DNA of 64,000 nt, taken from Chitinophagales bacterium (GTDB lineage: Bacteria; Bacillota; Syntrophomonadia; Syntrophomonadales; DTU052). Shown piece after piece: positions 14,435 to 47,228 of this stretch. The DNA is taken from the NCBI GenBank assembly GCA_050259035.1, contig JBLMZW010000141.1, positions 270 to 64,269 of the forward strand, given 5' to 3'. Under the pieces are notes generated by a model, which was given only the letters and a program-made list of their open reading frames with translations, had not been told where the DNA came from and made no database searches. Position 1 is the first letter of the stretch, and each line of letters opens with the position of its first letter. A program made the position numbers and the translations under genes.

Positions 14435-14590
14435 GTCTTTGACATAGTCTTTGAGTGGCGCGAACCGTCGGGTATTTAGGCTTTTGGGAAAATATTTAGA
14501 CTGCCTTTGGCTCGTGTGGTTAAAGGATTAGAAGACATTATATGCGCCACTCATTACTATTTCATGTACGCGAACTGATATAGAGACTTT

Positions 14591-15271
14591 TTAACTGGCA
14601 TATTCCCCGGAATAACTCACTAGAACCACATCTTTAACTCCTTCGATGGACGACAATGTATTAACAAAACCGGTATTATCATCCTTTAACTTTACCTCAA
14701 TGGTTAATTCAATACTATCTTCGGCTATGGTCTTGGATTTCAGCGTATATTTTAGACGGTTTAAAACCGTTCTTACCTCATCATGGGCTCTTTCGTCATA
14801 ATGAATAACCAGCATGTACGGAGATCGCTTAATATTAAATCTCGCAAAAACAAGAATTACAATTCCGGCAAAAAGCGAACCGATTACTGAAATGGTATAC
14901 ATTTGGGCTCCGGTAGCGATCCCAACTCCAATAGCCCAGAACATAAAGACAATATCCATCGGGTCTTTCAGGGCAGTTCTGAAACGAACAATACTTAACG
15001 CCCCTACCATTCCCAAAGAGAGAACAATATTTGAGCTTACCGTCATAATTACCATGGTAGTGAGGAGGCACATCAGAACTAGAGACACATTATAGTAATA
15101 ACTGTAAACAACGCCCCGAAAAGTAGTCTTATAAATGTAAAAGATAAAACAGGCCAGCAGAAGCGCAATCCCTAAACCCGTAAAAACATCGATGGAAGAT
15201 ATTTTATCCAGAGCATATAAATCCAGAATACTGCGTTTCAAAAGCTTTTGAAAGGTCATTACTTTGTCCAT
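14591..15271 (-). CDS. DUF4956 membrane protein (MgtC-like TM region plus small C-terminal domain)
   Basis: SLGMVGALSIVRFRTALKDP signature. Confidence 0.85.
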   Translation of the reverse strand: MDKVMTFQKLLKRSILDLYALDKISSIDVFTGLGIALLLACFIFYIYKTTFRGVVYSYYYNVSLVLMCLLTTMVIMTVSSNIVLSLGMVGALSIVRFRTALKDPMDIVFMFWAIGVGIATGAQMYTISVIGSLFAGIVILVFARFNIKRSPYMLVIHYDERAHDEVRTVLNRLKYTLKSKTIAEDSIELTIEVKLKDDNTGFVNTLSSIEGVKDVVLVSYSGEYAS

Positions 15272-15282
15272 TGCTGCCTCCT

Positions 15283-15981
15283 TTAGTACAGTTTAGTATT
15301 GCTGGTTCTGCAGAGTACGTATTTGGAAATAGCCCATCGGTTATGAGCGGGCATTCTCAAAAGATCGCTGAGATGCCCGGGGAAAAAATGGCGGAACTTA
15401 ATCTCCATGATCACCAGTGACTTGTCTAAAGCCCTCAGGGCTACCAGGTTTTCATTGAAGATGTCGGTTGAATCAAAACCAGCCGTCAAATGCTTATCAA
15501 AAGTAATTCGTACCGCAGTTCCGTCCATTACAAAAGCTTCTCGTAAATAGTCCACAATTACTTTGGGCCGCAAAATGCCAGTTAATGATTTTCGGCAAAA
15601 CTCACCTAAAAGATTCTGGTTGAATTGCATAGTATGCATGTTGTTGTGCGTTATTCCCTGGTATTCATTCCTGGTCAAGACCCTGCTTCGCTTGCGAAAG
15701 AAATCGCCGCGCCGTTCTTTGCGTTCCAGTTTTATTGGCTGATCAGCCAGATTATAAATTCGTATTCGGTATCTCTCACGCTCACTGATACCATAGTTCT
15801 TTTCATACAATGATGAATTATGAATGTCATCAAAATACAAACTTCTTACATGGTAATTGCCCTGGGAATCCGCAAAAGAATCGTGTTTCAAGAAAGCCTT
15901 TAGACGGTTTCTCAGATTAATGTATTCGTTGTGGTTGATATAATATTTGTATTCATGCCTGAAATAGTCGCTGCTGTTCAC
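15283..15981 (-). CDS. VTC-domain (polyphosphate polymerase / CYTH-like) protein
   Basis: RHEYKY, VRSLYFD, RYRIRIY, LERK, DYLREAF, VRITFD, MEIKF, SKY motifs. Confidence 0.85.
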   Translation of the reverse strand: MNSSDYFRHEYKYYINHNEYINLRNRLKAFLKHDSFADSQGNYHVRSLYFDDIHNSSLYEKNYGISERERYRIRIYNLADQPIKLERKERRGDFFRKRSRVLTRNEYQGITHNNMHTMQFNQNLLGEFCRKSLTGILRPKVIVDYLREAFVMDGTAVRITFDKHLTAGFDSTDIFNENLVALRALDKSLVIMEIKFRHFFPGHLSDLLRMPAHNRWAISKYVLCRTSNTKLY

Positions 15982-16005
15982 TGCTGCTCCTCTTAAATAT
16001 GAAAT

Positions 16006-17712
16006 CTAACGAACCCTAAAAGACTTCACTCCGTGATATATATTGCCGGAGTCATCCTGAAAATCATCAAAAGCAATTTGCGTATGACCCTTGCTGTCAT
16101 GAACAACCACTTTCCAGTAATAAGTTCCAGCTGGCAGCATGCTAAAGGCATATTTGATTTGGGGAGTTTGTGCCTTATGAATCACTCTGGTGAATCCGGG
16201 GTCAGAAGCTATTTGAATCTCATAGAACAGATCATCCCCTTGAATATCAAAAGAAGGATCCCAGTTTAGAACGAGCTTCCCGTATTCACTGGCCAACTCT
16301 CCCAGGTAAACCGGCATAGGATTCTCCAGACTTTTCAAAAAAGCACGACGGTTTTCTTCAGGAACGCTTTCCAGCCTTGTATACTCTTTCTCAAAATCCT
16401 GGTAGGTTCCTGGTAAACCGTTCAGGTCAGGAGACCTGGCCAAACACCAGCTGACCGTATCATAATAACCAGCTAGCAGGGTATGGGTATTTTTTTTATT
16501 AATAATCTTAGAAAGCTCATCCACCTTGTCACACAAAGCTTTAACATTGTCCGGATCGCTAAAGAATCTACGGTGAAGTACACATCCCCAATAATTAGCC
16601 AAACCTGAATGCCATTCCGCCGCCCAACTCTTCCTAATGCCTAATTGTGTTGTATAGCCCCAGGCACCGTCGTAATCCCAGGGAACAAAATAGAATTTAC
16701 CGGAAGCGGCGGGGGAATAGAGAAGAAAGTTTTGGGATTGGGTATCGGTATTACCCATTAGTATATTAGCCGCCATCCAGGTAAGGTAGTTGTTCCGGTC
16801 AAAATACTTGTCCACCACCTTATTGATATCCTGATTGTAATCATTTACGGCGTCCAACATGGCCAGTAAGTTGGTGTGATTATCCCCGGATCTTATGGAT
16901 AGCACTGTTTCAAAAGCTGCCTTATTGTATTTAGGATCGTTGGCATTCCTTAACTTGTCCGGGTATCTAAAGAACTCAAACATTTCTGCCTTATACAAGT
17001 TGCCATTGGGATCCAAACCGTGTGATACCAGGAACTTATGATTAGGTTGTTCTACTTGGGTGTAGAGGCCATAGGTTTGATAAAAATTAGCACTATCCCC
17101 ACTTGATAAGTCCTTTACATGAAGGACTACAAACCGGGTTCTCAGGCTAACCATATCGGGTATTATACGGAAAAAGTCGAAGCTTAATTTATTTCTTACT
17201 CGAGTTATATCCGCCGAATGTTTGTTCAAATTGATAATGCGTTGTCCATTCCACAAGCCAGCATTGTTTTGTAGACGAATCCGATATGATTTGGTGTTTT
17301 GGCGCCTGGCAGCCTGCCCTCGTAGATCCAGGGTGCCGTTAGATTCCTTTTCTCCGTAACCAATCATTCCCCGTTTTGGACCCTTTTCATCACCTTCCTG
17401 TAGAATGATCTTCATACTGGGACTGGCTTCACCTTTGGCAAATATTGCATTATTTAAATAATCAAAAGTAACGGACGGATTATCGTAGTCCTTTAAAACG
17501 GTAAGGTAGAGATGAGCAACTCCAGAGTCATCTTTTTGATAAACATACTTGTTATCGACCAGCTGATAATTACTTTCGTTGGAAACTCTACCGGACTTAG
17601 TCACAAGATTAGCATTTTTTTCAGCGGTAAATTGTTTATATAGGGGACCTGACAGAACTACACCCGCTAATATTATTGCTAAGATTATGAGATTAAGATT
17701 TTTTTTAAACAT
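16006..17712 (-). CDS. CotH kinase family protein, exported, with C-terminal FN3-like domain
   Basis: N-terminal signal/anchor; RG..KSYRI, YGLYTQVE, NTD..SQNFLLY and PWDYD motifs; GTYYWKVVVHD FN3-like tail. Confidence 0.85.
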   Translation of the reverse strand: MFKKNLNLIILAIILAGVVLSGPLYKQFTAEKNANLVTKSGRVSNESNYQLVDNKYVYQKDDSGVAHLYLTVLKDYDNPSVTFDYLNNAIFAKGEASPSMKIILQEGDEKGPKRGMIGYGEKESNGTLDLRGQAARRQNTKSYRIRLQNNAGLWNGQRIINLNKHSADITRVRNKLSFDFFRIIPDMVSLRTRFVVLHVKDLSSGDSANFYQTYGLYTQVEQPNHKFLVSHGLDPNGNLYKAEMFEFFRYPDKLRNANDPKYNKAAFETVLSIRSGDNHTNLLAMLDAVNDYNQDINKVVDKYFDRNNYLTWMAANILMGNTDTQSQNFLLYSPAASGKFYFVPWDYDGAWGYTTQLGIRKSWAAEWHSGLANYWGCVLHRRFFSDPDNVKALCDKVDELSKIINKKNTHTLLAGYYDTVSWCLARSPDLNGLPGTYQDFEKEYTRLESVPEENRRAFLKSLENPMPVYLGELASEYGKLVLNWDPSFDIQGDDLFYEIQIASDPGFTRVIHKAQTPQIKYAFSMLPAGTYYWKVVVHDSKGHTQIAFDDFQDDSGNIYHGVKSFRVR

Positions 17713-17750
17713 AATTTACATCCTTGCTGCATATAATTTAAGTTGCGATT

Positions 17751-19310
17751 CTAGTTAGAATATTCCGGGGTCAGTGAATCGACACAATCGCCTGACCTTG
17801 GCGTATCTATTGAACCTTTTCCTTCTGATTCCTTGGTAGTATCTTCATCACTGGTTTGCTTCTCATTAGTTGCACCCACTTCATCCAAACGTCTTACCAT
17901 ACGAGATATAGGACCGGCGGATTCGTTTACCCATAAGGGCTGAGAACAGAAGGTAAAATAGTCAATGTTTCTAAGGACATAGGATAGGCGTTCAAGGGCT
18001 ATTATGTAGCTGATGAAGCTGGCTAGAAAATATCCGGTTCCATAAAAGGATTCTCCAAGCTCTACGCTGAGGATCGTTAGTCCTAAATTCAATACTAGAA
18101 AACAGAAGGAGATTAAAAAAGTTCCTTTCCGGTCATCAAAGTAGAATAAAAGCATTATAGCTATGAACATGTTAATATAGCCAAAACCACCCAAGACTAG
18201 CATAAAAAAGATTTCTGTTGAGATTTTATTGAAACCAACCATCGGTAAGAACTTTACTCCAAGGATAAAGGCTATAAGTACGATAAAAAACTGTATCTGA
18301 GCTATGTGGTTTATTTCTTGAAAAACCACTTCATTCATTTCTTTTTTGGCCATTTGTATTTCGGTGATTGTGGACCCTTTTAATATATTGGAGTAATATC
18401 CCCTATATTTCTGATAAAAGTTGGTTTCAACCGAAACCACAAAGAGTACCATGGTAGGAATAATAGTTAAAACTGCAAAGAAGGTGGGGACATCATAAAG
18501 GGAACACATGGCATAGGTTTTGCCTAGAATGATTCTATGGGGACTTACCCAGAAAACGAAATTATGAACATAAGGGGCCAGAGTAAGGAAAAAACCGGTG
18601 ATTAAAATGGGATAAAATTTTTCTATATAAATTAGGAATTCCGCCATGTTGCTGGTTGAAGTGCCGTAAAAACTCTTTATATGGGTCGCAAACCAGATCA
18701 TGACTATTAAAAAACCTGCATCAACTGATAATAATACCAAGGAAACTAAGTCTATGTTATAGACATTTTTTAAAACCAAAGTGAAAACCATCGACAAGAG
18801 ACAGCTTAACGTAAAACCCAGAACAATTCGTATATAATCCTTAACAGCAGAAAGATAAATCATTTCTAGCCAGATTTGACAAAGCACAACGAAAAAACAA
18901 TAGGCTAGAATCTTATAGAGTAAAGGTAGTGGAGAATTCCAGTAGAAAAATAAGCCTGCTATAGCCGACAGGATTAATATAAATACTTGGGACCCATAAA
19001 AAGACTGTATGATACTTTCATATCGCTTAAGGTATAAATGATCAGAAATGAAACGGGACAATACAAATAAAAAGCCGCTGGTTAGGATTTGGGAGAAAAT
19101 AAAAGAGTAAACGATGGTTGCCAGCAAAAGCTCTATGCTGGAATACCTGACATTTTGTTTAATGAGATAGTACTGTACGAAAAAAATTAATCCAATACAA
19201 AATATCACCGGTCCTACAGTAACCAGAGCAGAATAGACGTATCCAGATAAATTGGATAAAAGACCTCTTTGATTAAATAACTTTTTCAGTTCAAAACCAA
19301 CACCGGCCAT
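17751..19310 (-). CDS. pelG: Exopolysaccharide Pel transporter PelG
   Basis: MAGVGFELKK start, SRFISD, YDVP, VETNFY..YR.YY, LFYFDDR; polytopic membrane protein. Confidence 0.9.
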   Translation of the reverse strand: MAGVGFELKKLFNQRGLLSNLSGYVYSALVTVGPVIFCIGLIFFVQYYLIKQNVRYSSIELLLATIVYSFIFSQILTSGFLFVLSRFISDHLYLKRYESIIQSFYGSQVFILILSAIAGLFFYWNSPLPLLYKILAYCFFVVLCQIWLEMIYLSAVKDYIRIVLGFTLSCLLSMVFTLVLKNVYNIDLVSLVLLSVDAGFLIVMIWFATHIKSFYGTSTSNMAEFLIYIEKFYPILITGFFLTLAPYVHNFVFWVSPHRIILGKTYAMCSLYDVPTFFAVLTIIPTMVLFVVSVETNFYQKYRGYYSNILKGSTITEIQMAKKEMNEVVFQEINHIAQIQFFIVLIAFILGVKFLPMVGFNKISTEIFFMLVLGGFGYINMFIAIMLLFYFDDRKGTFLISFCFLVLNLGLTILSVELGESFYGTGYFLASFISYIIALERLSYVLRNIDYFTFCSQPLWVNESAGPISRMVRRLDEVGATNEKQTSDEDTTKESEGKGSIDTPRSGDCVDSLTPEYSN

Positions 19311-20726
19311 TTATACTACCTCAAAACTAGAATAAAGATCACGATAATTGCTTATAAACCGTTCGGCCGTATAAAAACGATTAACCCGTTCAAAACCGAT
19401 TTCGCCCATTTGTTTTCGGAGCTCCTTATCTCGGCCCAATTTGATTATGGCTTGCCCCATTATTTCATAATCCATAACCGGAACCACAATACCGCCGGGA
19501 TTTCCTCCGTCTCCTTCGATAAGTTCACGACAGCAGCCAACATCGGTACAAATACATGGTTTACGGGTGGCCATTGCCTCAAGCAGTGCAAGAGGCTGTC
19601 CTTCACTGATACTGGAAAGAATAATGAGATCCATCTTGCCAATGTAATCCCGGGCATTAATCCTACCGGTAAAGATAACATCCTTCAACTGAAGTCTTTC
19701 CACCAGTTGCAGGCATTCATTATAATAGTCCGGATCTTCGTCGGTAGAGCCCATAATAAACAACCTTAGACTCTTGATTTCCTTTTTAGCCAGGACGAAT
19801 GCGTGGATCATGGTTTTTACATCCTTTATCGGGACTATTCTGATTAAAGCCCCCAGATTAATATAATTATCGTCTTCTTCTTTGCCCGGCAGATTTTCAT
19901 ATAAGGAAACATCAATTCCATTCGGTATAACCGAAATCTTATCAACAGAACATCCCAATTCCTGTTGTATCTCCTGGTTACGATGAAAAAGGGCAATTAC
20001 CTTATCAGCTGAACTATAGGCGCTATTAGAAAGGTTATAAAAAAACCTGATATAAGTGTCTTTAAAATAACTTTTTAACCACATAGCTTTAATAATTTCT
20101 TCTTCTCGCTCCCGGCTATAGATTCCATGTTCGGTTACAATAAAAGGTTTACGGTAAGTGTATTTTGCTAAACCACCCATTACCCCGGCATAGCCGGTGG
20201 AAACGCTATGATATAGATCAGCCGGGGGAATTCCCTTGCTAATAATATGAAACAGGGGTAAAAGCATGGAACGAATTGTCCAAAAAAATTCAGTAAATGG
20301 AATATAGGCAAAATGCTCTTTACTAACTTTCTGAACCAAATCCAAAAAATCAAAGCTCATTAGAAAACTGGATATATTATTAAATTTTGAATCTGATAAG
20401 AATTCAAATATCGGTTCCCAAACAACTTTATCACCCAATATCAGGTGGATTATCTCATCGGTAACAACGCTCCCAATACGGTATCTTCTGCCCCATCTGT
20501 ATTTTTGAGTTTTATATTCATCGAAAAAGTTTTCTACCACAGCTGTGATATTGTCCGGTAAGTCATACTTGAACACGCCCCGATACTTCTCTTCTGCACC
20601 AATAGTGTATATAAGGAATTCATGTTGAGGCATCGATGATATAAGCATTTGGATCCAACTCGAAACTCCCCCCATTACATAGGGGTAGCTGCCTTCTGTG
20701 ATTAAACAAATCTTCATCGGTATCAC
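19311..20726 (-). CDS. pelF: GT4 glycosyltransferase PelF
   Basis: EGSYPYVMGGVSSW, HSVSTGYAG, TEHGIYSRER, RIVPIKD, SISEGQPL. Confidence 0.93.
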   Translation of the reverse strand: MIPMKICLITEGSYPYVMGGVSSWIQMLISSMPQHEFLIYTIGAEEKYRGVFKYDLPDNITAVVENFFDEYKTQKYRWGRRYRIGSVVTDEIIHLILGDKVVWEPIFEFLSDSKFNNISSFLMSFDFLDLVQKVSKEHFAYIPFTEFFWTIRSMLLPLFHIISKGIPPADLYHSVSTGYAGVMGGLAKYTYRKPFIVTEHGIYSREREEEIIKAMWLKSYFKDTYIRFFYNLSNSAYSSADKVIALFHRNQEIQQELGCSVDKISVIPNGIDVSLYENLPGKEEDDNYINLGALIRIVPIKDVKTMIHAFVLAKKEIKSLRLFIMGSTDEDPDYYNECLQLVERLQLKDVIFTGRINARDYIGKMDLIILSSISEGQPLALLEAMATRKPCICTDVGCCRELIEGDGGNPGGIVVPVMDYEIMGQAIIKLGRDKELRKQMGEIGFERVNRFYTAERFISNYRDLYSSFEVV

Positions 20727-22546
20727 CTCTTATAGACCAACTGAAAAGCCGGTTGTCTAGCCTGAATTAAAAAAACACCATCGTCTATTTTAGAGACATC
20801 GCAACCCTTCCCGATAAGCTTGTTCCGGGTACGAAGAATAAAATAGACATCGTCTTCGTAATTATTAATCCAAACCTCAATTCCCTTATCAGAGTGTCGT
20901 ATATAGCATTGTTCCGAACCGAATTGTTTAATTTCGAGAGCTGCCTGGGAAGCCGTCATACTGCGTAACCAGCCGAACCTGGAGTGAATTAGCTTGAGAA
21001 AAGAATCAAATTCATTGTATAGTTCTTTCCAAACCCTGCCGTGATTTCGACTGGCGTCCAAAACATCATCCGGGTGAACAAAATGGGAGAAAACCCCTAG
21101 TTCTGTAATACCGTTATATGCATTCCAAAGGTTGTCACCATCATGGTTGTAGCCGGATGTAATACGAGGTAAATAAACAATATTATCGGGCCTGGCCTCG
21201 AATTCCTGAAGAAAATAGCCGGTTTCCTTCGAATCATCGGGATAAAGACCGGAGATAATTAATATACCAGGTATGGCCTCGCGTAAAGCCTTTTCCCCCT
21301 CTGGACTTAATATATTGGACGGGGGTACGTAAAGCCTAAGTGCATAATTGGGAAACAGTATTTTTAGATATGATTTAACCTCTTGTATTGATTGAATCAT
21401 ATCCGATTTGTTTTTCCAGGGTTTATAACCCAGATCCTCGTTAACATAACCAAAACCCGCCAGAGGTTGGTGATTGTAACCGTGAATGCCTAATTCTCCT
21501 TCGTTTTTTAATATTTCTCGTCCAAAACTAACCATATTTTTCTCTGTTGCATCCGAGGGGGCTGTAAAAGGCGAACTGGTTTTCTCATCATAATTAAGAA
21601 CTAAGGCCGCATTGTATTTAAGATCATAACGACTGCCCAGGGACAACATGTCCTTCCACCATATATCTCTATAGAAGGTCGGAACATCTCGGCCATACTC
21701 TTCATAAATTACAGGATCTGTTGTCTCGGGAAGGGGGGCGGGGAAATCATCAATGAAGGCAAGTTTTAAATTCAAAACCGGGTAAATAAAATCCTGGTTA
21801 ATGAAGCTTATTCCTCCAATGATCAGTCCCCGGGTATCTTTCTTATCCAACATGGTTCCATTAAAAATCAAGAACTGGCCTTTACCATAAGGGTTGCTCC
21901 AGAAAAGGGGAATCCTCTCTGAAGACAACGCATATACTAAACAGGATTTTTCTAAACCCACGACCATGGAGTAGTTATCCAGTCGGTTCCCTTTAATATT
22001 CAAATTCGTCCCTCGAATTAATACATTATTACACAGACGAATCCCCGTAGCTTCTTTGTACGGTCCTAACTCATAAATCCCCAGCTTGCGGTAGAGTCCT
22101 AAAAACGATCCATTAATGTTAGGACAACCAGTAAAAAAAGCATTTCCTCCTTGTTTGACGTAATCAATTATTTGGTTAAGGTTTTTTACCTTATCCAAAT
22201 CACGCACAGTAATAATTACGGTACCATATTTGCTCAAGCGGTTATTTGAGACACCGGTTTCGACAACGTCACAATGCTTTTTTAGTCGTTTAAACATTAT
22301 TTGGAGGTTACCGCTTGTATTTTTGCTGAGTTCTTCAGTTTGACTGTAAATAATAAGGAAGTTATCTTGTTTTTCTGTTTCAATAATCTCAGGGGGGATG
22401 AATACCTGTTTATCTATCGAACGTGGCGATAAACTATTGGTAGCCTGACTCAAGCTAAAAATTACATCGGTCCTCGATAACTGGATCATAACTCCCAGAA
22501 AAAAAACTAAAACCAGAATCAATTTAAGCTGGTTGCGACTTTCCAA
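20723..22546 (-). CDS. DUF2194 protein, PelA deacetylase-like
   Basis: FIDDFPAP, HGYNHQPL, YVPPSN, PRITSG and HFVHPDD CE4-like motifs; N-terminal anchor; position in the pel operon. Confidence 0.8.
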   Translation of the reverse strand: MESRNQLKLILVLVFFLGVMIQLSRTDVIFSLSQATNSLSPRSIDKQVFIPPEIIETEKQDNFLIIYSQTEELSKNTSGNLQIMFKRLKKHCDVVETGVSNNRLSKYGTVIITVRDLDKVKNLNQIIDYVKQGGNAFFTGCPNINGSFLGLYRKLGIYELGPYKEATGIRLCNNVLIRGTNLNIKGNRLDNYSMVVGLEKSCLVYALSSERIPLFWSNPYGKGQFLIFNGTMLDKKDTRGLIIGGISFINQDFIYPVLNLKLAFIDDFPAPLPETTDPVIYEEYGRDVPTFYRDIWWKDMLSLGSRYDLKYNAALVLNYDEKTSSPFTAPSDATEKNMVSFGREILKNEGELGIHGYNHQPLAGFGYVNEDLGYKPWKNKSDMIQSIQEVKSYLKILFPNYALRLYVPPSNILSPEGEKALREAIPGILIISGLYPDDSKETGYFLQEFEARPDNIVYLPRITSGYNHDGDNLWNAYNGITELGVFSHFVHPDDVLDASRNHGRVWKELYNEFDSFLKLIHSRFGWLRSMTASQAALEIKQFGSEQCYIRHSDKGIEVWINNYEDDVYFILRTRNKLIGKGCDVSKIDDGVFLIQARQPAFQLVYKR

Positions 22547-23459
22547 TGCTTATATCCCTTTCTCCTATCCAAAATCTTAGGATACTTAAACCCGTATAAG
22601 TCAGTGATATCGGCGCAATTCTTAACTTCTCCATCCAAATCCGGAAGTTAGGTTCATCATGGAGCATATAGTAAGTTTTCATGTATAACAGGTAAGGTTT
22701 CTCATTATTGTGACCATGCTTATTCATAAAATGATCGCATCCAATCAAAGCCTTATCATACTCTTTTAGCTCCAAAGTACATTCAATTTTATCTATAAAG
22801 TATTGGGATTCTTCTGGGGCAAGTCGGATTAAATTATCCAGAACCTGCAGCCTTAGATATTGATACTCTCTTACAGTGCGAGAATCCATCATGCCACTGC
22901 TTATATACTTTGCCAGAGCATCAGCATAAGCTATTGAGCTTTCTAGATCATCTGGATTTTTGTCGTATTTCACTGCTAAATCCTGCAGGGCCAGCGTAAG
23001 TTGACGAAGCAATTCAAACATGGCTGAAGCGGCATAGTGGGAGGTTTCAGTATCTTTATCCCGAAGTGCTTTCTGCAAAAAGGTACTTTGGGATAGGATG
23101 TCATTCCGCAGGGCATCGATCAATAAAGATCTTTTGGTCTTGCTATCATTTAGGACCAGGGCTTCCTGGATGGGAACAACATTCATTTCACGCTGGTAGT
23201 TTATTATCTTTAAGATGTCCTCTGGAGAATCGGCAGTTATGTAATCTAAATCAACAGTCTGCACGGAATCAGTTGTACTTTGTCGAGTATGGTTTAAAAA
23301 GAATATCAGTATAGTACCGAGCACAGGGAAAAGGCTTAAGATTAACAGTCGGTAAATACCCTGCCACCGGTCTAGTTTAAATACATATAAAGAATAGGCC
23401 AGTACCACGACATAGTAGAGAATTATCCAGTCTTTAAGCTGCATAAAAATCGGCCTCAT
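22524..23459 (-). CDS. PelE-like membrane/TPR-like protein
   Basis: Two N-terminal TMs, VVPIQEAL, D.ETSHYAAS, helical repeats; lies between pelD-like and DUF2194 genes. Confidence 0.65.
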   Translation of the reverse strand: MRPIFMQLKDWIILYYVVVLAYSLYVFKLDRWQGIYRLLILSLFPVLGTILIFFLNHTRQSTTDSVQTVDLDYITADSPEDILKIINYQREMNVVPIQEALVLNDSKTKRSLLIDALRNDILSQSTFLQKALRDKDTETSHYAASAMFELLRQLTLALQDLAVKYDKNPDDLESSIAYADALAKYISSGMMDSRTVREYQYLRLQVLDNLIRLAPEESQYFIDKIECTLELKEYDKALIGCDHFMNKHGHNNEKPYLLYMKTYYMLHDEPNFRIWMEKLRIAPISLTYTGLSILRFWIGERDISIGKSQPA

Positions 23460-25623
23460 TCACTAAATAGAAATCTATTCCGACGTTTTTTAAACGGTCA
23501 ATTACTGCCAGTGCGGCTGGGCCTTCAGTTTCTGAGAGTACAATATAAATGTTTCCGTCTGAGGCTAAACCGGCATGGTCATTGTCACGCAGGTTCTTCT
23601 CAATTATTGATGAAAGCTGTTTTAGATCATGTTCCACGGTTCTAGAGCGCAGTAACTTGAATTCTATCCCAAAGCGTTTCCGCGCATCCTGTTTAACCCT
23701 GATCAGGTTCATAAGGTAATCTTCCTTAAGCAGGTTAGTGCCAGGTACCAGCTTTTGCTGTGCCAGTGCTTCTTCGTAACGGCTAGCCCGGGCTATCGAA
23801 GCGGAAATCAGCTTAATCACAGTACAAAACAAGTTAATATGATAAAGAGTTAAGTTTTGAAAAGGAAGGTCATAAAGCATTACCAGTGCCACTACTTGCC
23901 CGGAGTCCAAAATCGGTCCGGTTATAATAGGAATGTCGGGATCAAATTGGTCATTAACACTTACTGATTTTTGGGCAATAACTTTTTGAAAATAAGCGTG
24001 GTTGTCTAACTTAATCGACTTGGGCATTTCAAAACCCGTTTTATTGGATTTAGCTTTTAGTCTTAGGTGGCAACCGGAAGTGCCAAGAGTATAAAGAACT
24101 ACCCCATCGGTTTTCATAACGGTTTCAATAACAGATATGGCCGAATAGAAAACGTTGTCTGAGTCGACATTGTCTAATTGGCTGGTCAGATTATATATCT
24201 TCCCGAAACTATCTTCGGAATTAGCGATTTGTGACTGCAACTCATCTTTTATCACCATGGTTTGTTTATGTATCTCGTTCAGGAATTTATATCTGTCTTT
24301 AAGCAAGTTGAACCTGTTTGCTGCTTCCATTATGGTTTGGTTTTTTCTATCAACGAAGTATCCGATCAGCAGACCTATCAGAATAAAGAAAGCTAATTGC
24401 AGGACACTGCCGGTATTATAAAGCAGCGAAATTATATCGCGGCCATGCATCATCGAAGCGAAAATATAATAAGCACAAGAAACCAGGACTGAAATTATTA
24501 ACTGCCTCGACCCATGCACTATTCCAATGATTACAATGTAATAAATCAAATAAGAAGCGGCAGTCTCATCAAGAGTGCCTTTAGAAACATACGAGAGTCC
24601 CAAAAATCCGGCTAATAAGAGCATATTCTCTACATAAGGCAAGATAACACTATTAGCCATTCTGCTAACAAACTTTGTTTTTTTAACAGCTTTTTCATTA
24701 CTAATTCGTTCTCGATTGGTAAAACGCCAATCAAAAGTTTGTCTTAAACCTTCCTCTAGCGAATACATAGGAACCCAATCAAGGGTCTTCTTAATTCCAG
24801 TATTATCGAGCCACCAGGTTGTGAATTGGTCGGGCAGCTTATTCTGATTATCAACCTCTATCAAAGGGTCCAAATCCCGCATTAAACTAATCAATTCTTC
24901 CGGGCCAACCGGTAGGTTGTTGGAAAGGTTATAGATACCACGAATGTCACTGAAGGCCGCACGGTATAAAGCATCGACCACATCGTTTATATATATAAAA
25001 TCCATGCTAGAATGTAAATCAGGAATAACCAATTTATGATCATCCAACATATGATCCAAAATGATATCAAAAAAACCTCTAGTGTTCCGCGAATAATTTC
25101 CCGGGCCAAAGACTTCTGATATACGAAGACAAACTGTCTCCAATCGATAAAACTCATGCCACTTCTGGCAATATAATTCACCAACCAATTTGTTTATCCC
25201 GTCCAAGGAATTTGGGTTGCAGTCCGAATCCTCCTTAAAGGGAACCTGGGCTCCGTCGCCATAAACCGCAGCAGAAGACGCAAAAACAAATTTCTTTACT
25301 TTAAAATTAACCGACAATTGTAAAAGATTGATCAGACCACACAGGCTTGACAGGGTTGATTGGAGTGGCTGGACACAATTCTTATTTTTCTCACAAGCAA
25401 GGTGAATGACAACATCAAATGAATGGTTTTTAAAGATATCTTCGCACCTGGAATCCTCAGCATCAATAATGAATGAAAGATGCTTAAAGGAAACACTATT
25501 TTGACTGCCATTCGATAGATTATCAATTATAGCGACGGAATGGCCTTCCTTATTCATTTTGGCAGCCAGCTTAGAACCTATGTATCCGTAACCACCAATA
25601 ATTAGTACTTTCAATGCGACCAC
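23434..25623 (-). CDS. Fusion of an extended-SDR (PelX-like epimerase) domain with PelD-like TM-GAF-degenerate GGDEF c-di-GMP receptor
   Basis: GGYGYIG, IIDNLSNG and ASSAAVYG; ~4 TMs; coiled coil; GAF-like region; RDND (RxxD) followed by no GGDEF. Confidence 0.8.
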   Translation of the reverse strand: MVALKVLIIGGYGYIGSKLAAKMNKEGHSVAIIDNLSNGSQNSVSFKHLSFIIDAEDSRCEDIFKNHSFDVVIHLACEKNKNCVQPLQSTLSSLCGLINLLQLSVNFKVKKFVFASSAAVYGDGAQVPFKEDSDCNPNSLDGINKLVGELYCQKWHEFYRLETVCLRISEVFGPGNYSRNTRGFFDIILDHMLDDHKLVIPDLHSSMDFIYINDVVDALYRAAFSDIRGIYNLSNNLPVGPEELISLMRDLDPLIEVDNQNKLPDQFTTWWLDNTGIKKTLDWVPMYSLEEGLRQTFDWRFTNRERISNEKAVKKTKFVSRMANSVILPYVENMLLLAGFLGLSYVSKGTLDETAASYLIYYIVIIGIVHGSRQLIISVLVSCAYYIFASMMHGRDIISLLYNTGSVLQLAFFILIGLLIGYFVDRKNQTIMEAANRFNLLKDRYKFLNEIHKQTMVIKDELQSQIANSEDSFGKIYNLTSQLDNVDSDNVFYSAISVIETVMKTDGVVLYTLGTSGCHLRLKAKSNKTGFEMPKSIKLDNHAYFQKVIAQKSVSVNDQFDPDIPIITGPILDSGQVVALVMLYDLPFQNLTLYHINLFCTVIKLISASIARASRYEEALAQQKLVPGTNLLKEDYLMNLIRVKQDARKRFGIEFKLLRSRTVEHDLKQLSSIIEKNLRDNDHAGLASDGNIYIVLSETEGPAALAVIDRLKNVGIDFYLVNEADFYAA

Positions 25624-25779
25624 CTTAATGGTAAGTTATACATTCGCTGCTATTTAATATTTAATATAGAATATAATATTTTACAAAAAAATAACACGAA
25701 TAATGTCGGAAATTATAACGATAATTATTAAAGATGGAGATAAGAAGCAAAAATGATGGGCTATGGCTGAGTAATTTGT

Positions 25780-27249
25780 TCATGGTAATACTGTTTGAGG
25801 TGATCCAACAGATATAGTGCCGACCGAATACCTGCCATCGGATTGCCGTCCTTCAACAGCAAAAACCACTCCGGGCTTACCATCAGCAGGATCAAGTATG
25901 GCAAAACAGAGGTTATAAGTTCCTGTCGGTAAATTAGTCGGTAGTTTGAAGGAACTATAGAGGTTATTAGCTCCTGGCAGCCATTTACGGGTATCATCTT
26001 TGGTTATATATCTAAAGACAACCTTACCATCACTGTCACACAGGGAAATCTCGACCGGCCACAAGTAGTAAAAGGGGGCAACCCCAGTGTTGTCCACGAC
26101 CCAATTAACTTCCATGTCTTTACCGGGGCAGGGAGATGACGTGCACTTCACCGATTTGATGACATAACGATACCCCATCAATTTAAGCAAAGAGTCGCGG
26201 TTCTTAATCACATCCGGATCACTGATATCATATACTGGACAACTGGGTCCTAGCCAGCTGGTGTGGCTCTGTTTCAGCTGCATCATTGTACGGGAGAGGT
26301 TTACATTACTTAGAAATGATGTGCCCGGGGGTAACGTGAATTCCCCTCCAGACGGGGCATACTTCCAGAATTCGGGCATGGCTGGTTGCTTAGTCCCCGT
26401 TAGATAATCCAAATAACCTTTTTGATACCACTTTATAAAATAGTCTTCAGTCTGCAGAACGTTGCCAAAGGAATCATTATATAAACCTAACCTATGGTCA
26501 CGGGCAATCGTAATCGGACGCCGAATCAATAACTGCTTTTGAGTAAAGTACTTCAAGTAATGTTCAACATACTGATTATAAATTTTCTCAGGGGGAAACG
26601 GCACTTTGTACTCTTCCTCCACCTGGGTATGCCATTCACCCCAGTGACCGATGCTTCCTAATTCCACGAATGCCAATTGATCATTGCTGTTGTAACGTTC
26701 GGCGACCGCTTCGATTAACTTTTCGTGGTAGGTAACTATTTTAGGGTTGCTGTAATTCGGGCTAAATCCTTTGCCGTGCTCACCTCGATACCAGATTCCG
26801 TCTTTGTTAGTTTCCTGGTAAAGCCAATTGGGGATATCAGTATGATAATCTTCATCGGGTTCGTCCAGGTATATACGAAGTATAATTTTGACCTTACGTT
26901 CCCGCCAGTAACTGTAATGGTTCTTTTCCTCCAGCCCTTCGAAATCATATACTCCTTTTCCCGGCTCCAGTTCTTTCCATGAAGCCCCCACGTAGACCAG
27001 GGAATGGGGGAAGGTAATATCAGTTTCACCAGCCGGCGGGGCAAAACCAATAAAAGGATTGGATACGACATCATTAACTCCCTGTGGGTAAAACATCTTG
27101 TACTGATTGGCTTGAGTTAAGGATTTTACCACAGAAACTGCCGCTAAGTTGAAGAAACATATGACGGTAATTAAGGCGAGAATGAGCACAAATCTTGACT
27201 TCTTCACTTCGGGACTTAACCTTCCTTTATCATATAAGGGTAATCTCAC
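25780..27249 (-). CDS. DUF4832-domain putative glycoside hydrolase, exported
   Basis: NPFIGF, WKELEP..GVYDF, GSIGHWGEWH, GLYNDSFG, PSGGE, MGYRY, NTGVAPFY; N-terminal TM. Confidence 0.75.
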   Translation of the reverse strand: MRLPLYDKGRLSPEVKKSRFVLILALITVICFFNLAAVSVVKSLTQANQYKMFYPQGVNDVVSNPFIGFAPPAGETDITFPHSLVYVGASWKELEPGKGVYDFEGLEEKNHYSYWRERKVKIILRIYLDEPDEDYHTDIPNWLYQETNKDGIWYRGEHGKGFSPNYSNPKIVTYHEKLIEAVAERYNSNDQLAFVELGSIGHWGEWHTQVEEEYKVPFPPEKIYNQYVEHYLKYFTQKQLLIRRPITIARDHRLGLYNDSFGNVLQTEDYFIKWYQKGYLDYLTGTKQPAMPEFWKYAPSGGEFTLPPGTSFLSNVNLSRTMMQLKQSHTSWLGPSCPVYDISDPDVIKNRDSLLKLMGYRYVIKSVKCTSSPCPGKDMEVNWVVDNTGVAPFYYLWPVEISLCDSDGKVVFRYITKDDTRKWLPGANNLYSSFKLPTNLPTGTYNLCFAILDPADGKPGVVFAVEGRQSDGRYSVGTISVGSPQTVLP

Positions 27250-27401: not shown

Positions 27402-28250
27402 TTATACCGTTGAATATACAATGCCTATAGCTCCAGGTCCGACATGTAACCCAATTACCGGACCAATGGGCACTACCGGCACTTCGAAACCATACTTTTC
27501 CTTTAATCGTTCCGCCAGCTCCATGCCCCTTGCATGGCATTGAATATGGTGAACTACCACATGATTTAGCCCGCAATTAATAAAATCCTTATCAACTCTT
27601 GCCAGCATATCTTCCAATGCCGTGCGATATCCTCGAGCCTTTTTAAGTACAGCTGTTTTGCCCTTTTCCACAAAGAGAATCGGAGTTATTTTGAGGATTG
27701 AACCTAGCAATGCTGCCGCTCCTCCAATTCTTCCGCCCTTACGTAAGTATTCTAGTCCAGCCGGAATGAAACAAAAGTTTACCCGCTGGATAATGTGTTT
27801 GGCTTTCTCGGCTACGTTTTCCAGTGAGTGTCCGGCTTTAGCAATTCGGGCGGCTTCTATTACCGGCAGACCTAGAGCCATACAGTTGGTACGCGAGTCG
27901 ATGATCTCAATTGCGGCATGCGGATACTTTTCTAAAATGATCTGTTTGGCGGTAAGCGCCGAATGGTAGGTGCCGCTCATTTCGGAGGAAATAAAGACCG
28001 CCACAACGTCATCACCTTTTGCAACTATGTTTTCAAAGGCTGTGGTTATGTCTCCCAAAGATGGCTGAGATGATACCGGTATTACGTTATCCTTTTTAAT
28101 CTTGGCATAGAAATAATTAAAATCAACTTCTGTTTCCTTGAATGATTCATCAGGAAATTGAACGCTCAAGGGAATCACAGTTATATCCAGGTCCCTCGCT
28201 AATTCCGGTAAAATATACGAAGTGCTGTCGGTTAATACCTTAACACCCAA
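27402..28250 (-). CDS. DegV family fatty-acid-binding protein
   Basis: TDSTS, SSQPS, SSEMSGTY, LRKGGRIG, HVGPG; AAGGAGG RBS with TTG. Confidence 0.92.
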   Translation of the reverse strand: MGVKVLTDSTSYILPELARDLDITVIPLSVQFPDESFKETEVDFNYFYAKIKKDNVIPVSSQPSLGDITTAFENIVAKGDDVVAVFISSEMSGTYHSALTAKQIILEKYPHAAIEIIDSRTNCMALGLPVIEAARIAKAGHSLENVAEKAKHIIQRVNFCFIPAGLEYLRKGGRIGGAAALLGSILKITPILFVEKGKTAVLKKARGYRTALEDMLARVDKDFINCGLNHVVVHHIQCHARGMELAERLKEKYGFEVPVVPIGPVIGLHVGPGAIGIVYSTV

Positions 28251-28345
28251 AGGTAAAATCCTCCTTGATTTTCTTTAGACCAGTACCTTAAACAGTTTAA
28301 CACGGCGAATAAGAAGGTCACAATCAAAGCCCATCAAAGGCGGCA

Positions 28346-28391
28346 CAAAAAATAACGCGCGCACGAGATGTTTCCATCTAGCGTACGCGCG
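28346..28391 (-). terminator. Intrinsic terminator after the two-component operon
   Basis: GC-rich hairpin GCGCGTACG...CGTGCGCGC followed by TTATTTTTTG on the minus strand. Confidence 0.6.
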
Positions 28392-28413
28392 GTAAAGATA
28401 TAATTTAGATAGA

Positions 28414-29979
28414 TTATGTGTCTTGGGTAGTATTCGACGGAATTTGAATACAGAACGAAACTCCCTGTTGCTCATTCTCCGCCCATACCGAGCTTTTGTT
28501 AAGATCGGCCACCCGCTTCAGAATTGCCAAACCTAACCCGATTTCACCGTCTTTTCCGGAACTGAAAGGTTCGAAAAGGTTAGGCAGCAGTTGCGGATCA
28601 ATAGAGTTGCCGTCATTCCAAACCCGCAGAATGACCATTTCGTCTATCCGGTTGGCGGTTATTCTGATCTTATTACAGGCATGGCGCAACTGGTTATCAA
28701 GCAGGTTTTCCAATCCCACCTCCCATTGCTGCTTATTACCTGTAACCAGGAGAGGCGGCAGTTTATAATCCCACTCCAGTTCCGGCCGGCGGGGTTGAAA
28801 TCGTTCCGCACAATCCGATATTATCTGGGACAGATCGAAAGAAGCAGTGTCCAATTGATGACTTGACAGATAATTGAGTTTGTTTAAATATAAGAGATCT
28901 TTAATACGACTCTCTAAACGCTCAGATTCCTTAATAATTACGTCAATACTGGCCTCCTGGGTACCCCGGGGATAAACCCCATCCAGAATAGACTGAGCGT
29001 AACTGTGAACTACCATCACTGGTGTCTTTAATTCGTGAGAAACGTTCTGTAGAAATGACCTCTGAGCCTCATCCTGGCTTATCAGTTTTTGGCGCATTTG
29101 TTCGAAGGCCCGGGCTAACCTGCCAATCTCGTCTCGCCGCACCATCTGAATGGGTTGATGCCAATCATGTTCAGCGATACGAGCAGCTTCTGTTTCCATC
29201 TGAATCAGGGGTCGGGATAAATATTTTGCCAATCCCATGGAGGGGAACCAGCTCAGTACTAAAAGAATGAACATAAGAACAAGCAGACGCCAATACATAG
29301 TTTTTACCAGACCGTTCCAATATGTGCCCCAGGAATATGTAACAGCATAAACCGGTTGATTTTCAATAATGCTCCTGCGAATAACATAGTAAAGTGTTTT
29401 GCCTCCTGTTTTGTGATAATACTCCTTAAAGATTTCTTTTTGTATCAAAGCTTCATTCTTTATAAGATTAAACGAGTCGATGGGAAGGTCATCGGGGCAA
29501 AGCGTTTTATTATCTCCAGAAAAGACCATATGCCGCACCAACTTGGAGTCTCCCGAAGTAACAGGGAGTACTGAAATATTTATATTATCCAGAGTTGACT
29601 TACCCAGAGCCAGACTGGTGGTAACAGTATATTGTTCCTGAAAAATAGTCGCCCGGTCAGGCCGGACAGAGGTTACAACACCGCCTGAGGCTTGAGCTAT
29701 ATATATGCCTTTCATAATATCGGATTCATTTTTAGTCGAGATTTTAATATTCGGTTTAACCGTAATCTTTACACTGCTTTGAGGTAGGTTGGTATCAGAG
29801 AAGGAATCAAGTTTAATTACTCCGACAGTTGGTTGAGAATCCCCCAGCATTTTAAAGACCTGTTTAGTGAAAAACTCGTTCAATGTCCAGGGAAGAAAAA
29901 GGACCAGCAGCATAAAAATTAGGCCGGTAATACCTACACACATTAACCAGATTTGAAAGGATAAGGGCATGTTCTTCAT
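28414..29979 (-). CDS. HAMP sensor histidine kinase, CssS-like
   Basis: MKNMPLSFQIW start, two TMs, HAMP, SHELKTPVMVVHSYAQSILDG, NLLDNQLRH, GLGLAI. Confidence 0.85.
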   Translation of the reverse strand: MKNMPLSFQIWLMCVGITGLIFMLLVLFLPWTLNEFFTKQVFKMLGDSQPTVGVIKLDSFSDTNLPQSSVKITVKPNIKISTKNESDIMKGIYIAQASGGVVTSVRPDRATIFQEQYTVTTSLALGKSTLDNINISVLPVTSGDSKLVRHMVFSGDNKTLCPDDLPIDSFNLIKNEALIQKEIFKEYYHKTGGKTLYYVIRRSIIENQPVYAVTYSWGTYWNGLVKTMYWRLLVLMFILLVLSWFPSMGLAKYLSRPLIQMETEAARIAEHDWHQPIQMVRRDEIGRLARAFEQMRQKLISQDEAQRSFLQNVSHELKTPVMVVHSYAQSILDGVYPRGTQEASIDVIIKESERLESRIKDLLYLNKLNYLSSHQLDTASFDLSQIISDCAERFQPRRPELEWDYKLPPLLVTGNKQQWEVGLENLLDNQLRHACNKIRITANRIDEMVILRVWNDGNSIDPQLLPNLFEPFSSGKDGEIGLGLAILKRVADLNKSSVWAENEQQGVSFCIQIPSNTTQDT

Positions 29980-30659
29980 AACTTCACCATCCTATAGCCA
30001 AAGCCGTAAATGGTTTCAATTCTCGCTCTGGGGATTTTCTTCCTGACCCTCCGGACAAGGTCATCGACCACCCGATCCGAGCCGAAATAATCACTACCCC
30101 AAACATTTTCTATTATTTGCTCTCTTCCCAGGGCCAGGCCCCGGTTGTTAACCAGATACCACACCAGATCAAATTCCTTCGAAGTCAGGTCGATTACTAT
30201 GCCGTCTTCATCACGAACTACCCGCTCAAACTCATATAGGGTGTAATAGGAGAAATCGATTGAATGAGCGGCCTTTGCCTGGAGTTCTGACTCGCCGTAT
30301 ACTCTCTGGAGAAGCTTACGGGAACGAATAACCAGTTCTTGCGGGAGAAAAGGCTTGGCCAGATAGTCTTCACTGCCCATCTCCAACCCGACGATCCGAT
30401 CTATATCAGCGTCCCGGGCTGAGATGAATATAACAGGAACCTGAGCTGATTCTATTTTGATCTCCCTAATCAATTGAAAACCGTCAATGCCAGGTAGCAT
30501 TATATCCAGAATCCATAAATGCGGCGGTCGCTTAATCCATGGTCTGGCATCAGCACCGTTTAGAAAGGACTTTACTTCCCAACTTTCCTTTTTCAGATAG
30601 GAAGTCAGTATTTCGTTCAGACTGGGTTCGTCTTCTACCAGATATACTATGTAATCCAT
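29976..30659 (-). CDS. OmpR-family response regulator, CssR-like
   Basis: VYLVEDE, PHLWILDIMLP, FISARD, GSDRVVDDLVRR, ETIYGFGY; AAGGAGG RBS before ATG 30659. Confidence 0.88.
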   Translation of the reverse strand: MDYIVYLVEDEPSLNEILTSYLKKESWEVKSFLNGADARPWIKRPPHLWILDIMLPGIDGFQLIREIKIESAQVPVIFISARDADIDRIVGLEMGSEDYLAKPFLPQELVIRSRKLLQRVYGESELQAKAAHSIDFSYYTLYEFERVVRDEDGIVIDLTSKEFDLVWYLVNNRGLALGREQIIENVWGSDYFGSDRVVDDLVRRVRKKIPRARIETIYGFGYRMVKL

Positions 30660-30757
30660 ACAGGGGTCCTCCTTCCCATTAGAAGGACGCAAACTTACGC
30701 CCCCTTAGAACGCTTAATAGACTTTTTGGGGATTTCGCCGTTTTGGGTTGATTCCCT

Positions 30758-46871: not shown

Positions 46872-46957
46872 TGGTGCCGAAGGTGGGACTCGAACCCACA
46901 TGTCCTCAGGACACTCGATTTTGAGTCGAGCGCGTCTGCCAATTCCACCACTTCGGC
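46872..46957 (-). tRNA. tRNA-Leu (anticodon CAA)
   Basis: Reverse complement GCCGAAGTGGTGGAATTGGCAGACGCGCTCGACTCAAAATCGAG...GGGTTCGAGTCCCACCTTCGGCACCA: acceptor stem, CTCGA/TCGAG anticodon stem with CAA, long variable arm, TTCGA loop, encoded CCA. Confidence 0.96.
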
Positions 46958-47228
46958 TTATTATTATATTAATATAGGTTTTTATTGTAAGTTCTCTGCA
47001 AATCTAGCGTATCTAATTGTACAACATGATTTGGAAACGGTCAAGAAAGCGGGATTTGGGCTAGTTCTGGTTTGATGCAGCCCTATAAGGTCAAAAGGGA
47101 GGGATGCGCTTAATTTGGCGAATATATAATATAATCGCTTCTTATTAATGTTAAATAAAGGCAGGAAAAGGTAGTATCTATGGCGAAAAGTGATCATATT
47201 GAAAATTAAGGTATTTAAGGAGAGGGCT

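Follow-up and report, generated by a model that had tools for sequence, protein, structure and literature searches.

A Gram-positive-type pel operon with a downstream CotH–VTC–DUF4956 module: a possible polyphosphate-making pair serving an exported partner

The window analysed here is a stretch of 64,000 nucleotides from Chitinophagales bacterium (GCA_050259035.1, contig JBLMZW010000141.1, positions 270 to 64,269 of the forward strand), taken from a genome of 89.85% completeness with the GTDB lineage Bacteria; Bacillota; Syntrophomonadia; Syntrophomonadales; DTU052. It contains a Gram-positive-type pel exopolysaccharide operon with the previously published accessory trio cotH–VTC–DUF4956 downstream. 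The favoured interpretation, which is given an even chance, regards this trio as a portable module in which the VTC–DUF4956 pair would produce polyphosphate on the inner side of the membrane on behalf of an exported partner. Its observed basis consists of the gene content, the co-orientation of the genes, the tight pairing of VTC with DUF4956, the presence of catalytic-type residues, the topology of the three proteins and the enrichment of the trio at pel operons. In the mechanism that we infer, which includes polyphosphate synthesis, docking, any export and any CotH substrate, a cytoplasmic Vtc4-like tunnel enzyme would polymerise polyphosphate from ATP while docked on DUF4956, an MgtC-like four-helix protein with a cytoplasmic ACT-like domain. 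The pair might then hand the polyphosphate chain across the membrane, or DUF4956 might control VTC. The exported CotH-fold kinase would be the beneficiary of the pair in a third compartment, and at pel loci the module would condition or modify the matrix or the cell surface, Pel synthesis not being its task.

The operon comprises nine minus-strand open reading frames (ORFs), running from 27249 to 14591 in the order DUF4832, SDR-PelD (with a short-chain dehydrogenase/reductase, SDR, domain), PelE-like, PelA_DA (DUF2194), PelF, PelG, CotH, VTC and DUF4956:

25780–27249, minus strand: DUF4832/glycoside-hydrolase-like protein, 489 aa (Pfam DUF4832 2.1e-25, weak GH42 match)
25624–25779, no strand: AT-rich intergenic spacer of 156 nt between the DUF4832 gene and pelD (sequence reading)
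23434–25623, minus strand: PelD-like protein, 729 aa (Pfam Epimerase 7.7e-41, N-terminal)
22524–23459, minus strand: PelE-like protein, 311 aa (no Pfam match; assigned by position and two N-terminal transmembrane (TM) segments)
20723–22546, minus strand: PelA_DA, DUF2194/DUF2334 deacetylase-like protein (Pfam DUF2194 1.3e-151)
19311–20726, minus strand: PelF, a GT4 glycosyltransferase (NCBIfam PelF equivalog 2e-107; Pfam DUF3492 1e-77 plus GT1/GT4)
17751–19310, minus strand: PelG, polytopic membrane protein (Pfam PelG 9.2e-133)
16006–17712, minus strand: exported CotH-fold kinase, 568 aa (Pfam CotH 1.2e-57)
15283–15981, minus strand: soluble VTC-domain triphosphate-tunnel protein, 232 aa, Vtc4-like (Pfam VTC 1e-33)
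14591–15271, minus strand: DUF4956 membrane protein, 226 aa (Pfam DUF4956 5.8e-13)

The pel genes abut or overlap, the PelE-like ORF overlapping its neighbours by 26 and 23 nt, and the coordinates leave gaps of 38 nt between pelG and cotH, 24 nt between cotH and VTC, and 11 nt between VTC and DUF4956. A ribosome site, GGA(T)G, lies upstream of cotH. None of the six terminator-like sites falls into these three gaps, and shuffled sequences contained 12.7 ± 4.5 such sites. The preliminary description of this DNA had reported the same gene content, strand and gaps and no evident terminator, in agreement with the ORFs, the coordinates and the Pfam and NCBIfam matches. It listed pelD, pelE, DUF2194, pelF, pelG and the trio, but left the first gene of the range, which encodes the DUF4832 glycosidase-like protein, unnamed and missed the N-terminal SDR domain of "PelD". 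A promoter scan of the 156-nt gap between the DUF4832 gene and pelD returned no consensus site; this spacer may contain an internal promoter. At the other end of the operon, the spacer at 14435–14590, towards which the DUF4956 and DUF805 genes converge, shows no canonical terminator and contains a 10-bp long-range inverted repeat with a fold z of −1.96.

The operon is also represented in a public RNA library, the soil metatranscriptome X1, which contains 21 pieces of the window stretch, 18 of them at least 99% alike. A 304-nt contig of this library (17488–17791), identical to the window, bridges pelG and cotH with 41 nt of the pelG end and 225 nt of cotH. Another X1 contig bridges pelA_DA and pelF, and other identical pieces lie within cotH and VTC, while uncovered parts (e.g., 21260–23195) are uninformative. 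The X1 contigs are consistent with read-through from pelG into cotH, short of proof.

Among the Pel-side proteins, PelF is an NCBIfam equivalog (360 bits against a cut-off of 100) and PelG matches its Pfam model over the full length (model positions 1–452 of 452). PelA_DA carries an N-terminal TM segment and is membrane-anchored and extracytoplasmic, and a hydrophobic segment at residues 15–45 provides the DUF4832 protein with an N-terminal membrane anchor. The PelD-like protein starts with an SDR/epimerase domain, followed by approximately four TM segments (residues 325–426) and a C-terminal region, and its profile retrieves the same-position gene in other pel loci. Alignment of its SDR domain to the UDP-glucose 4-epimerase 4zrm places an Asp at the Tyr of the YxxxK motif, and by this comparison the domain looks inactive. 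The C-terminal half, where a PelD would be expected to carry its GAF/degenerate GGDEF c-di-GMP receptor, matches none of the Pfam models, and an RxxD-like motif was spotted by eye only. The PelE-like protein has TM segments at 11–58 and a weak match of the tetratricopeptide-repeat type, and its homologues occupy the same position in six pel loci. The product expected of a Gram-positive pel operon (pelDEA_DA_FG) is a partly deacetylated polymer rich in N-acetylgalactosamine (GalNAc).

This architecture has precedents. In its accessible parts, Whitfield 2020 (PMC7112168) reports that pelDEA_DA_FG of streptococci and clostridia directly adjoins accessory genes for a CotH-like kinase, a "poly-phosphate polymerase" and the families DUF4956 and DUF4832, and describes a related accessory set in bifidobacteria and a Streptococcus gallolyticus variant with the DUF4832 gene upstream; the accessory set is stated to accompany an extra epimerase domain on PelD. 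The available sections of the preprint Raju 2024 (bioRxiv 10.1101/2024.04.20.589940) deal with the S. intermedius homologues SIR_1591-1594, which include an exported CotH with catalytic residues and a tail resembling fibronectin type III (FN3) domains, a cytoplasmic Vtc4-like protein with its catalytic residues kept, and a protein with four TM segments and an ACT domain, assigned to MgtC. Since both papers had already described this architecture, it does not count as a discovery. As far as their accessible parts allow a comparison, the window contains the same families in the same order (pelD-E-A_DA-F-G-cotH-VTC-DUF4956) and, like the S. intermedius set, it combines an inactive-looking SDR domain on PelD with an exported CotH, a soluble VTC protein with catalytic-type residues and an ACT-bearing DUF4956 of approximately four TM segments. 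The DUF4832 protein is the counterpart of SIR_1591, with an upstream placement as in the S. gallolyticus variant. Unlike the published accessory group, the window belongs to another organism and has reads in a soil metatranscriptome. The observation itself is correct, and the operon adds one more host to a known architecture; the question that matters is the function of the module, for which no biochemical study was found in the literature searched; in the accessible parts of PMC13454231, PMC10434189 and PMC5817204, the module genes are listed in tables only.

Four Pfam models (VTC, CotH, DUF4956 and PelG) were used to survey the distribution of the module in 301 genomes from the phylum of the window, followed by adjacency limits, which required DUF4956 within 2 kb, CotH within 5 kb and PelG within 12 kb of VTC. 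ORFs were called in 52 module loci and labelled with profiles built from the window proteins, and 111 unlabelled neighbours in same-strand runs of these loci were scanned against Pfam. VTC was present in 45 genomes (53 loci), CotH in 43, DUF4956 in 46 and PelG above its cut-off in 12. DUF4956 lies within 2 kb of VTC in 50 of the 53 loci; the three unpaired VTC genes are isolated at or close to a contig end, or their DUF4956 match is on another contig. Natural DUF4956/VTC fusions account for four of 65 longer VTC proteins, three with DUF4956 preceding VTC and one with the reverse order. They place the ACT-like domain on the enzyme's side of the membrane and support a physical pair. These fusions (P0061, P0062, P0064 and P0065; 458–463 aa) have one member per cluster and may therefore result from gene-calling read-through. 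The other 61 longer proteins, among them P0001 and P0039, were not shown to be fusions; in six that were scanned, the VTC domain is C-terminal and preceded by an extension of approximately 190–330 residues without a Pfam match. In two of these proteins, the N-terminal extension is very basic and of low complexity. Prediction of a 1:1 VTC–DUF4956 complex from the two proteins' own alignments gave a score of 0.00, which is evidence neither way.

Judged by its residues and its modelled fold, the VTC protein would most likely polymerise polyphosphate from ATP. Thirteen positions are invariant in 50 VTC homologues (K12, R72, R74, E86, K88, K97, Y145, R147, R158, D162, E193, K195 and K220), and S219 of the window protein is nearly invariant. 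In a profile alignment, the invariant positions correspond to Vtc4 K200, R264/R266, K281, K294, Y359/R361, R373, E426 and S457/K458. Among the tunnel residues of Vtc4, we take K200, R264, R266, K281, Y359, R361, E426, S457 and K458 to be catalytic. When the family profile was compared with the sequences of the Protein Data Bank (PDB), Vtc4 (3g3q, 5.2e-22) was retrieved ahead of Vtc2 (1.7e-12) and Vtc3 (1.6e-10), neither of which is known to be active; a PDB search with the single window sequence gave no match, and the profile search was needed. The AlphaFold2 (AF2) model of the protein (pLDDT 93.6) finds its best Foldseek match in Vtc4 (3g3q_A, E 2.4e-13, TM 0.73), with other tunnel enzymes five orders of magnitude weaker (YgiF, 8.9e-8). 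According to Pfam, the window protein consists of a VTC domain only, with neither an SPX nor a membrane domain, and none of 51 VTC proteins from module loci has a TM segment. The likeness to the yeast VTC complex (Vtc4/Vtc3/Vtc1) comprises the tunnel catalytic domain, the aligned Vtc4 residues and the obligatory association with a membrane protein. In contrast to the yeast complex, the window protein lacks SPX and DUF202, the membrane partner is MgtC-like and carries an ACT domain, and the two parts are separate polypeptides that are rarely fused.

By sequence and model, DUF4956 is an MgtC-like protein with a predicted cytoplasmic ACT-like C-terminal domain, and the sequence comparisons gave no kinship with the channel domain of yeast VTC. 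In its AF2 model (pLDDT 85.5), membrane helices at approximately 26–50, 58–96, 104–121 and 125–149 precede a beta-alpha-beta-beta-alpha-beta domain; among 45 homologues, three TM-like segments were detected in 43, two in one and four in one. The best Foldseek matches of the C-terminal domain are 2lqj (E 1.3e-4) and 7qa5 (6.8e-4), the C-terminal domains of Mycobacterium tuberculosis and Pseudomonas aeruginosa MgtC, respectively. A wide structural search, which covered this domain and not the membrane part, returned VIA Z values of 9.3 and 9.0 for MgtC and a Z of 11.1 for the ACT-type protein TM1266. Against the curated MgtC/SapB families, the window protein remains below the cut-offs, with 30.6 bits (2.4e-7) for NCBIfam NF007431 (cut-off 214) and 10.8 bits for Pfam PF02308 (cut-off 31.4), the latter being matched weakly by 30 of the 45 homologues. 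A DUF4956 profile retrieved nothing meaningful from the PDB sequences. DUF4956 therefore resembles MgtC/SapB in its hydrophobic N-terminal half and ACT-like C-terminal domain and differs in scoring far below the family cut-offs, in having its own invariant RFR motif (R96-F-R98) and in always standing beside a VTC gene. Based on the positive-inside rule, the RFR motif would be located on the cytoplasmic side.

The affinity of DUF4956 to MgtC also speaks for the explanation proposed in Raju 2024, which is possible and on the doubtful side. It states that polyphosphate stays in the cytoplasm or that VTC merely hydrolyses tri- or polyphosphates, that DUF4956 is an MgtC-like regulator of the phosphate or energy state, and that CotH acts on its own as a surface kinase with ATP as donor, the operon reflecting co-regulation. 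Besides the NF007431 score and the top-ranking 2lqj and 7qa5 structures, it is consistent with the failure to find channel homology by the DUF4956 profile against the PDB, the structural search with the C-terminal domain or the DUF202 search of the genome, and with the OmpR-type two-component systems that 19 of 52 loci have no more than 7 kb from the module. The accessible part of Raju 2024 itself argues that polyphosphate may remain cytoplasmic, and the deletion phenotypes reported there for S. intermedius are mild. This explanation does not account for the tie, kept in 50 of 53 loci, between a cytosolic enzyme and a polytopic membrane protein, nor for the constant export of a third partner, whatever its fold; it also places an ATP-dependent kinase outside a Gram-positive cell, with no obvious donor. 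Taken together, an enzyme in the cytosol, a membrane protein as its obligatory companion and a third, exported protein whose fold varies suggest instead that a product made inside serves a partner outside. Such a design favours the membrane-docked polyphosphate polymerase, with either the product or the control crossing the membrane.

The exported partner in the window, CotH, matches Bacillus cereus CotH (5jd9, E 5.6e-16), with which it shares the Pfam family and the aligned D...N and WDY(D/N) motifs. It differs from the Bacillus protein in its N-terminal signal/anchor, approximately 100 extra C-terminal residues and a non-sporulation context. The window protein has D323, N328 and D346, and among 29 module CotH proteins these residues are kept in 26, 22 and 26, respectively; some copies may be pseudokinases, since three of the 29 align without equivalents of D323/D346. 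The N-terminal hydrophobic stretch (residues 1–28 in the window CotH, which also has a C-terminal extension) recurs in 33 of 34 module CotH proteins. With the signal/anchor and the location in an exopolysaccharide operon, the window CotH does not fit a spore-coat role in the cytoplasm of the mother cell. Stand-alone CotH ORFs of approximately 360–373 aa, which the survey detected away from VTC, are taken as the sporulation type. The topologies given in the preliminary description, an exported CotH, a soluble VTC protein and a DUF4956 membrane protein, were borne out by this stretch, by the lack of TM segments in the 51 VTC proteins and by the approximately four TM helices of the DUF4956 model. 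In four pel-linked loci from two families (L027, L028, L033 and L034), two tandem CotH genes are located between pelG and VTC.

CotH is not the only exported protein found beside the pair. In six loci without CotH (L006–L010 and L016; e.g., L006:6849–8918), VTC–DUF4956 adjoins a gene for a Cthe_2159 carbohydrate-binding beta-helix protein. All six of these proteins have an N-terminal hydrophobic stretch with a nearby Cys, which is read as a putative lipoprotein-type signal, and the Cthe_2159 protein seems to stand in for CotH as the exported partner of the pair. In four further module loci, the pair adjoins genes for proteins with leucine-rich repeats (LRR) and/or a lamin-tail domain (LTD).

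The active-site motifs of CotH are intact, in line with a proposal put forward in the discussion of Whitfield 2020 that is given little chance here, namely that CotH regulates Pel synthesis by phosphorylating the Pel machinery, with VTC–DUF4956 in an unrelated support role. The correlation of the accessory genes with an SDR-bearing PelD, described in the accessible part of that paper, and the Tyr-to-Asp exchange in the SDR domain of the window PelD agree with it. However, CotH is exported and could therefore reach extracytoplasmic parts only, most module CotH proteins have no pel operon nearby, and deletion of the S. intermedius CotH homologue left Pel signal and aggregation unchanged according to the available text of Raju 2024. 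The further steps of the preliminary description, in which CotH takes polyphosphate as donor and phosphorylates Pel, were not supported and likewise sit uneasily with the mild deletion phenotypes in S. intermedius. However, a phosphate modification would escape the assays used in that species, which scored aggregation and binding of an anti-GalNAc antibody.

The complete trio of VTC, DUF4956 and CotH is present at 32 of the 53 VTC loci, in 30 genomes, and PelG lies within 12 kb at seven of the 53. Among the 12 genomes with PelG, the trio is adjacent to pel in seven (five families) and on another contig in one, while four have no VTC. Its occurrence in 8/12 PelG genomes versus 22/289 others corresponds to a Fisher p of 1.4e-6, which is overstated because related genomes are not independent. 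The trio is enriched at pel, yet pel is a minority context. The co-occurrence with pel that the preliminary description had proposed to check holds for 7/12 pel loci, and only 7/32 trio loci are at pel. Since 25 of the 32 trio loci are outside pel, they contradict the statement in the accessible part of Raju 2024 that the three genes together are not found outside pel operons, and the function should therefore be sought in a general surface module rather than in a Pel-specific step.

Outside pel, the commonest order is VTC–DUF4956–CotH. At pel, five loci have the order PelG–CotH(–CotH)–VTC–DUF4956 and two the order CotH–VTC–DUF4956–PelD...PelG. Five other trio loci (L012, L021, L052, L054 and L056) lie in a same-strand run with GT2-type, processive-like synthases, accompanied by HEAT and EAL genes (L012, L021), BspA-LRR and DHHW genes (L052, L054) or a GT4–GT2 fusion (L056); from their gene content, they are assigned to a second kind of exopolysaccharide locus with the module. 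Together with the seven pel loci, 12 of the 32 trio loci are located beside a polysaccharide glycosyltransferase. A comparable set is described in the accessible part of a report on Clostridium perfringens NELoc-2 (PMC11677781), with CotH, two VTC-domain proteins, a glycosyltransferase, a polysaccharide deacetylase and a HEAT protein. NELoc-2 likewise combines CotH and VTC with polysaccharide genes without pel and resembles L012 and L021 (GT2, HEAT and trio); compared by its description, it differs in its synthase type and in being a pathogenicity locus.

In a list of the 27 nearest VTC loci among species representatives, the best identity is 45% and CotH is present in 19; one of the pel-bearing loci in this list, from an Erysipelotrichaceae metagenome-assembled genome, has the same gene order as the window. 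The VTC, CotH and DUF4956 families were also found in Bacteroides thetaiotaomicron, Corynebacterium glutamicum and Methanosarcina acetivorans in a presence search, in which PelG was absent. On a quick tree of 75 VTC proteins, nine pel-linked members fall into one large unresolved clade together with plain trios, involving three label changes, at least two of which rest on well-supported branches. The VTC proteins linked to Cthe_2159 group apart, in a deep clade of their own. The 5.6-Mb genome G186 contains three VTC–DUF4956 modules, one Cthe_2159-linked (L008), one pel-linked with two tandem CotH (L027) and one plain trio (L048), and G286 and G168 contain two module types each. Paralogous copies of the module appear to work for distinct surface systems.

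This scatter also bears on the explanation that the adjacency is incidental, with a mobile three-gene module having landed by pel, which is disfavoured and regarded as highly improbable. It would fit the many contexts of the module, the two or three copies of different types in several genomes (e.g., G186) and the mobile-element genes at some loci, namely transposase/integrase genes in the run of the Cthe_2159-type locus L007 and phage-integrase fragments at the GT2-type locus L021. It is at odds with the presence of the trio at 7/12 pel loci from five families, the placement of the trio either after pelG or ahead of pelD, the tight gaps with the bridging RNA-library contig, and the two or more well-supported label changes of the pel-linked VTC proteins.

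Several points weigh against polyphosphate production for an exported partner. Bacterial triphosphate tunnel metalloenzymes are usually triphosphatases or cyclases, and MgtC, which DUF4956 resembles, is known to act as a regulator rather than a channel. DUF202, the channel domain of the yeast complex, was not found in the 89.85%-complete genome. The idea that VTC replaces the polyphosphate kinase PPK1 was rejected, as PPK1 is present in 16 of 45 genomes with VTC versus 36 of 256 without; in the window genome, at the same completeness, neither PPK1 nor PPK2 was found, and one Ppx/GppA is present. The RNA evidence consists of short metatranscriptome contigs from a library that may contain DNA. 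PelG is missing within 12 kb of 25/32 trio loci, and PelF or PelG accompanies only two of the 27 nearest VTC loci listed. In S. intermedius, single deletions retained aggregation and the Pel antibody signal, with a small drop in the DUF4956 mutant, as far as the available sections of Raju 2024 report.

Of the split polyphosphate synthase and translocase suggested by the preliminary description, the pairing is supported by the 50/53 count and the fusions, and the synthase by the Vtc4-aligned residues and the best fold match to Vtc4, but the membrane partner is MgtC-like and gave no sequence relation to the yeast channel domain. That polyphosphate crosses the membrane at all is a tentative proposal, more doubtful than synthesis for the exported partner as such. 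A broader version, considered unlikely, would make VTC–DUF4956 a synthase and exporter of polyphosphate that is widespread among prokaryotes, a counterpart of the eukaryotic VTC complex with an unrelated MgtC-like membrane part, which feeds CotH kinases, Cthe_2159 lipoproteins and proteins of the LTD/LRR type. At pel and GT2 loci, CotH would use or attach polyphosphate, or polyphosphate would cross-link the cationic deacetylated exopolysaccharide. Exported polyphosphate as the counter-ion of this cationic polymer is quite unlikely, and the use of polyphosphate as a donor by CotH very unlikely.

In approximately one in seven sampled genomes (45/301), a Vtc4-like enzyme is firmly linked to a membrane protein resembling MgtC and, as a rule, accompanied by an exported kinase. 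If the pair makes or exports polyphosphate, this would explain polyphosphate in bacteria without PPK and would show how phosphate reaches a kinase outside the cell or a cationic polymer of the matrix. If the synthase-exporter version were true, it would add a phosphate-based layer to matrix chemistry and the first defined route to extracellular polyphosphate in bacteria.

Directly upstream of the operon and on the same strand are genes for DegV, a HAMP histidine kinase and an OmpR-type regulator (27402–30692, minus strand). The window two-component system (28414–30692) was considered as an orthologue of the module-adjacent ones elsewhere, which an identity of only 23–37% does not support. An Rfam scan of the window found a tRNA alone, a lone gene (46875–46957, minus strand, 55.7 bits) amid plus-strand genes. 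Further along, a 762-aa protein (47190–49478, plus strand) combines FN3 repeats with copper-amine-oxidase N-terminal-like domains; its gene is followed by one for an extracytoplasmic function (ECF) sigma factor, and it is probably a cell-surface protein.

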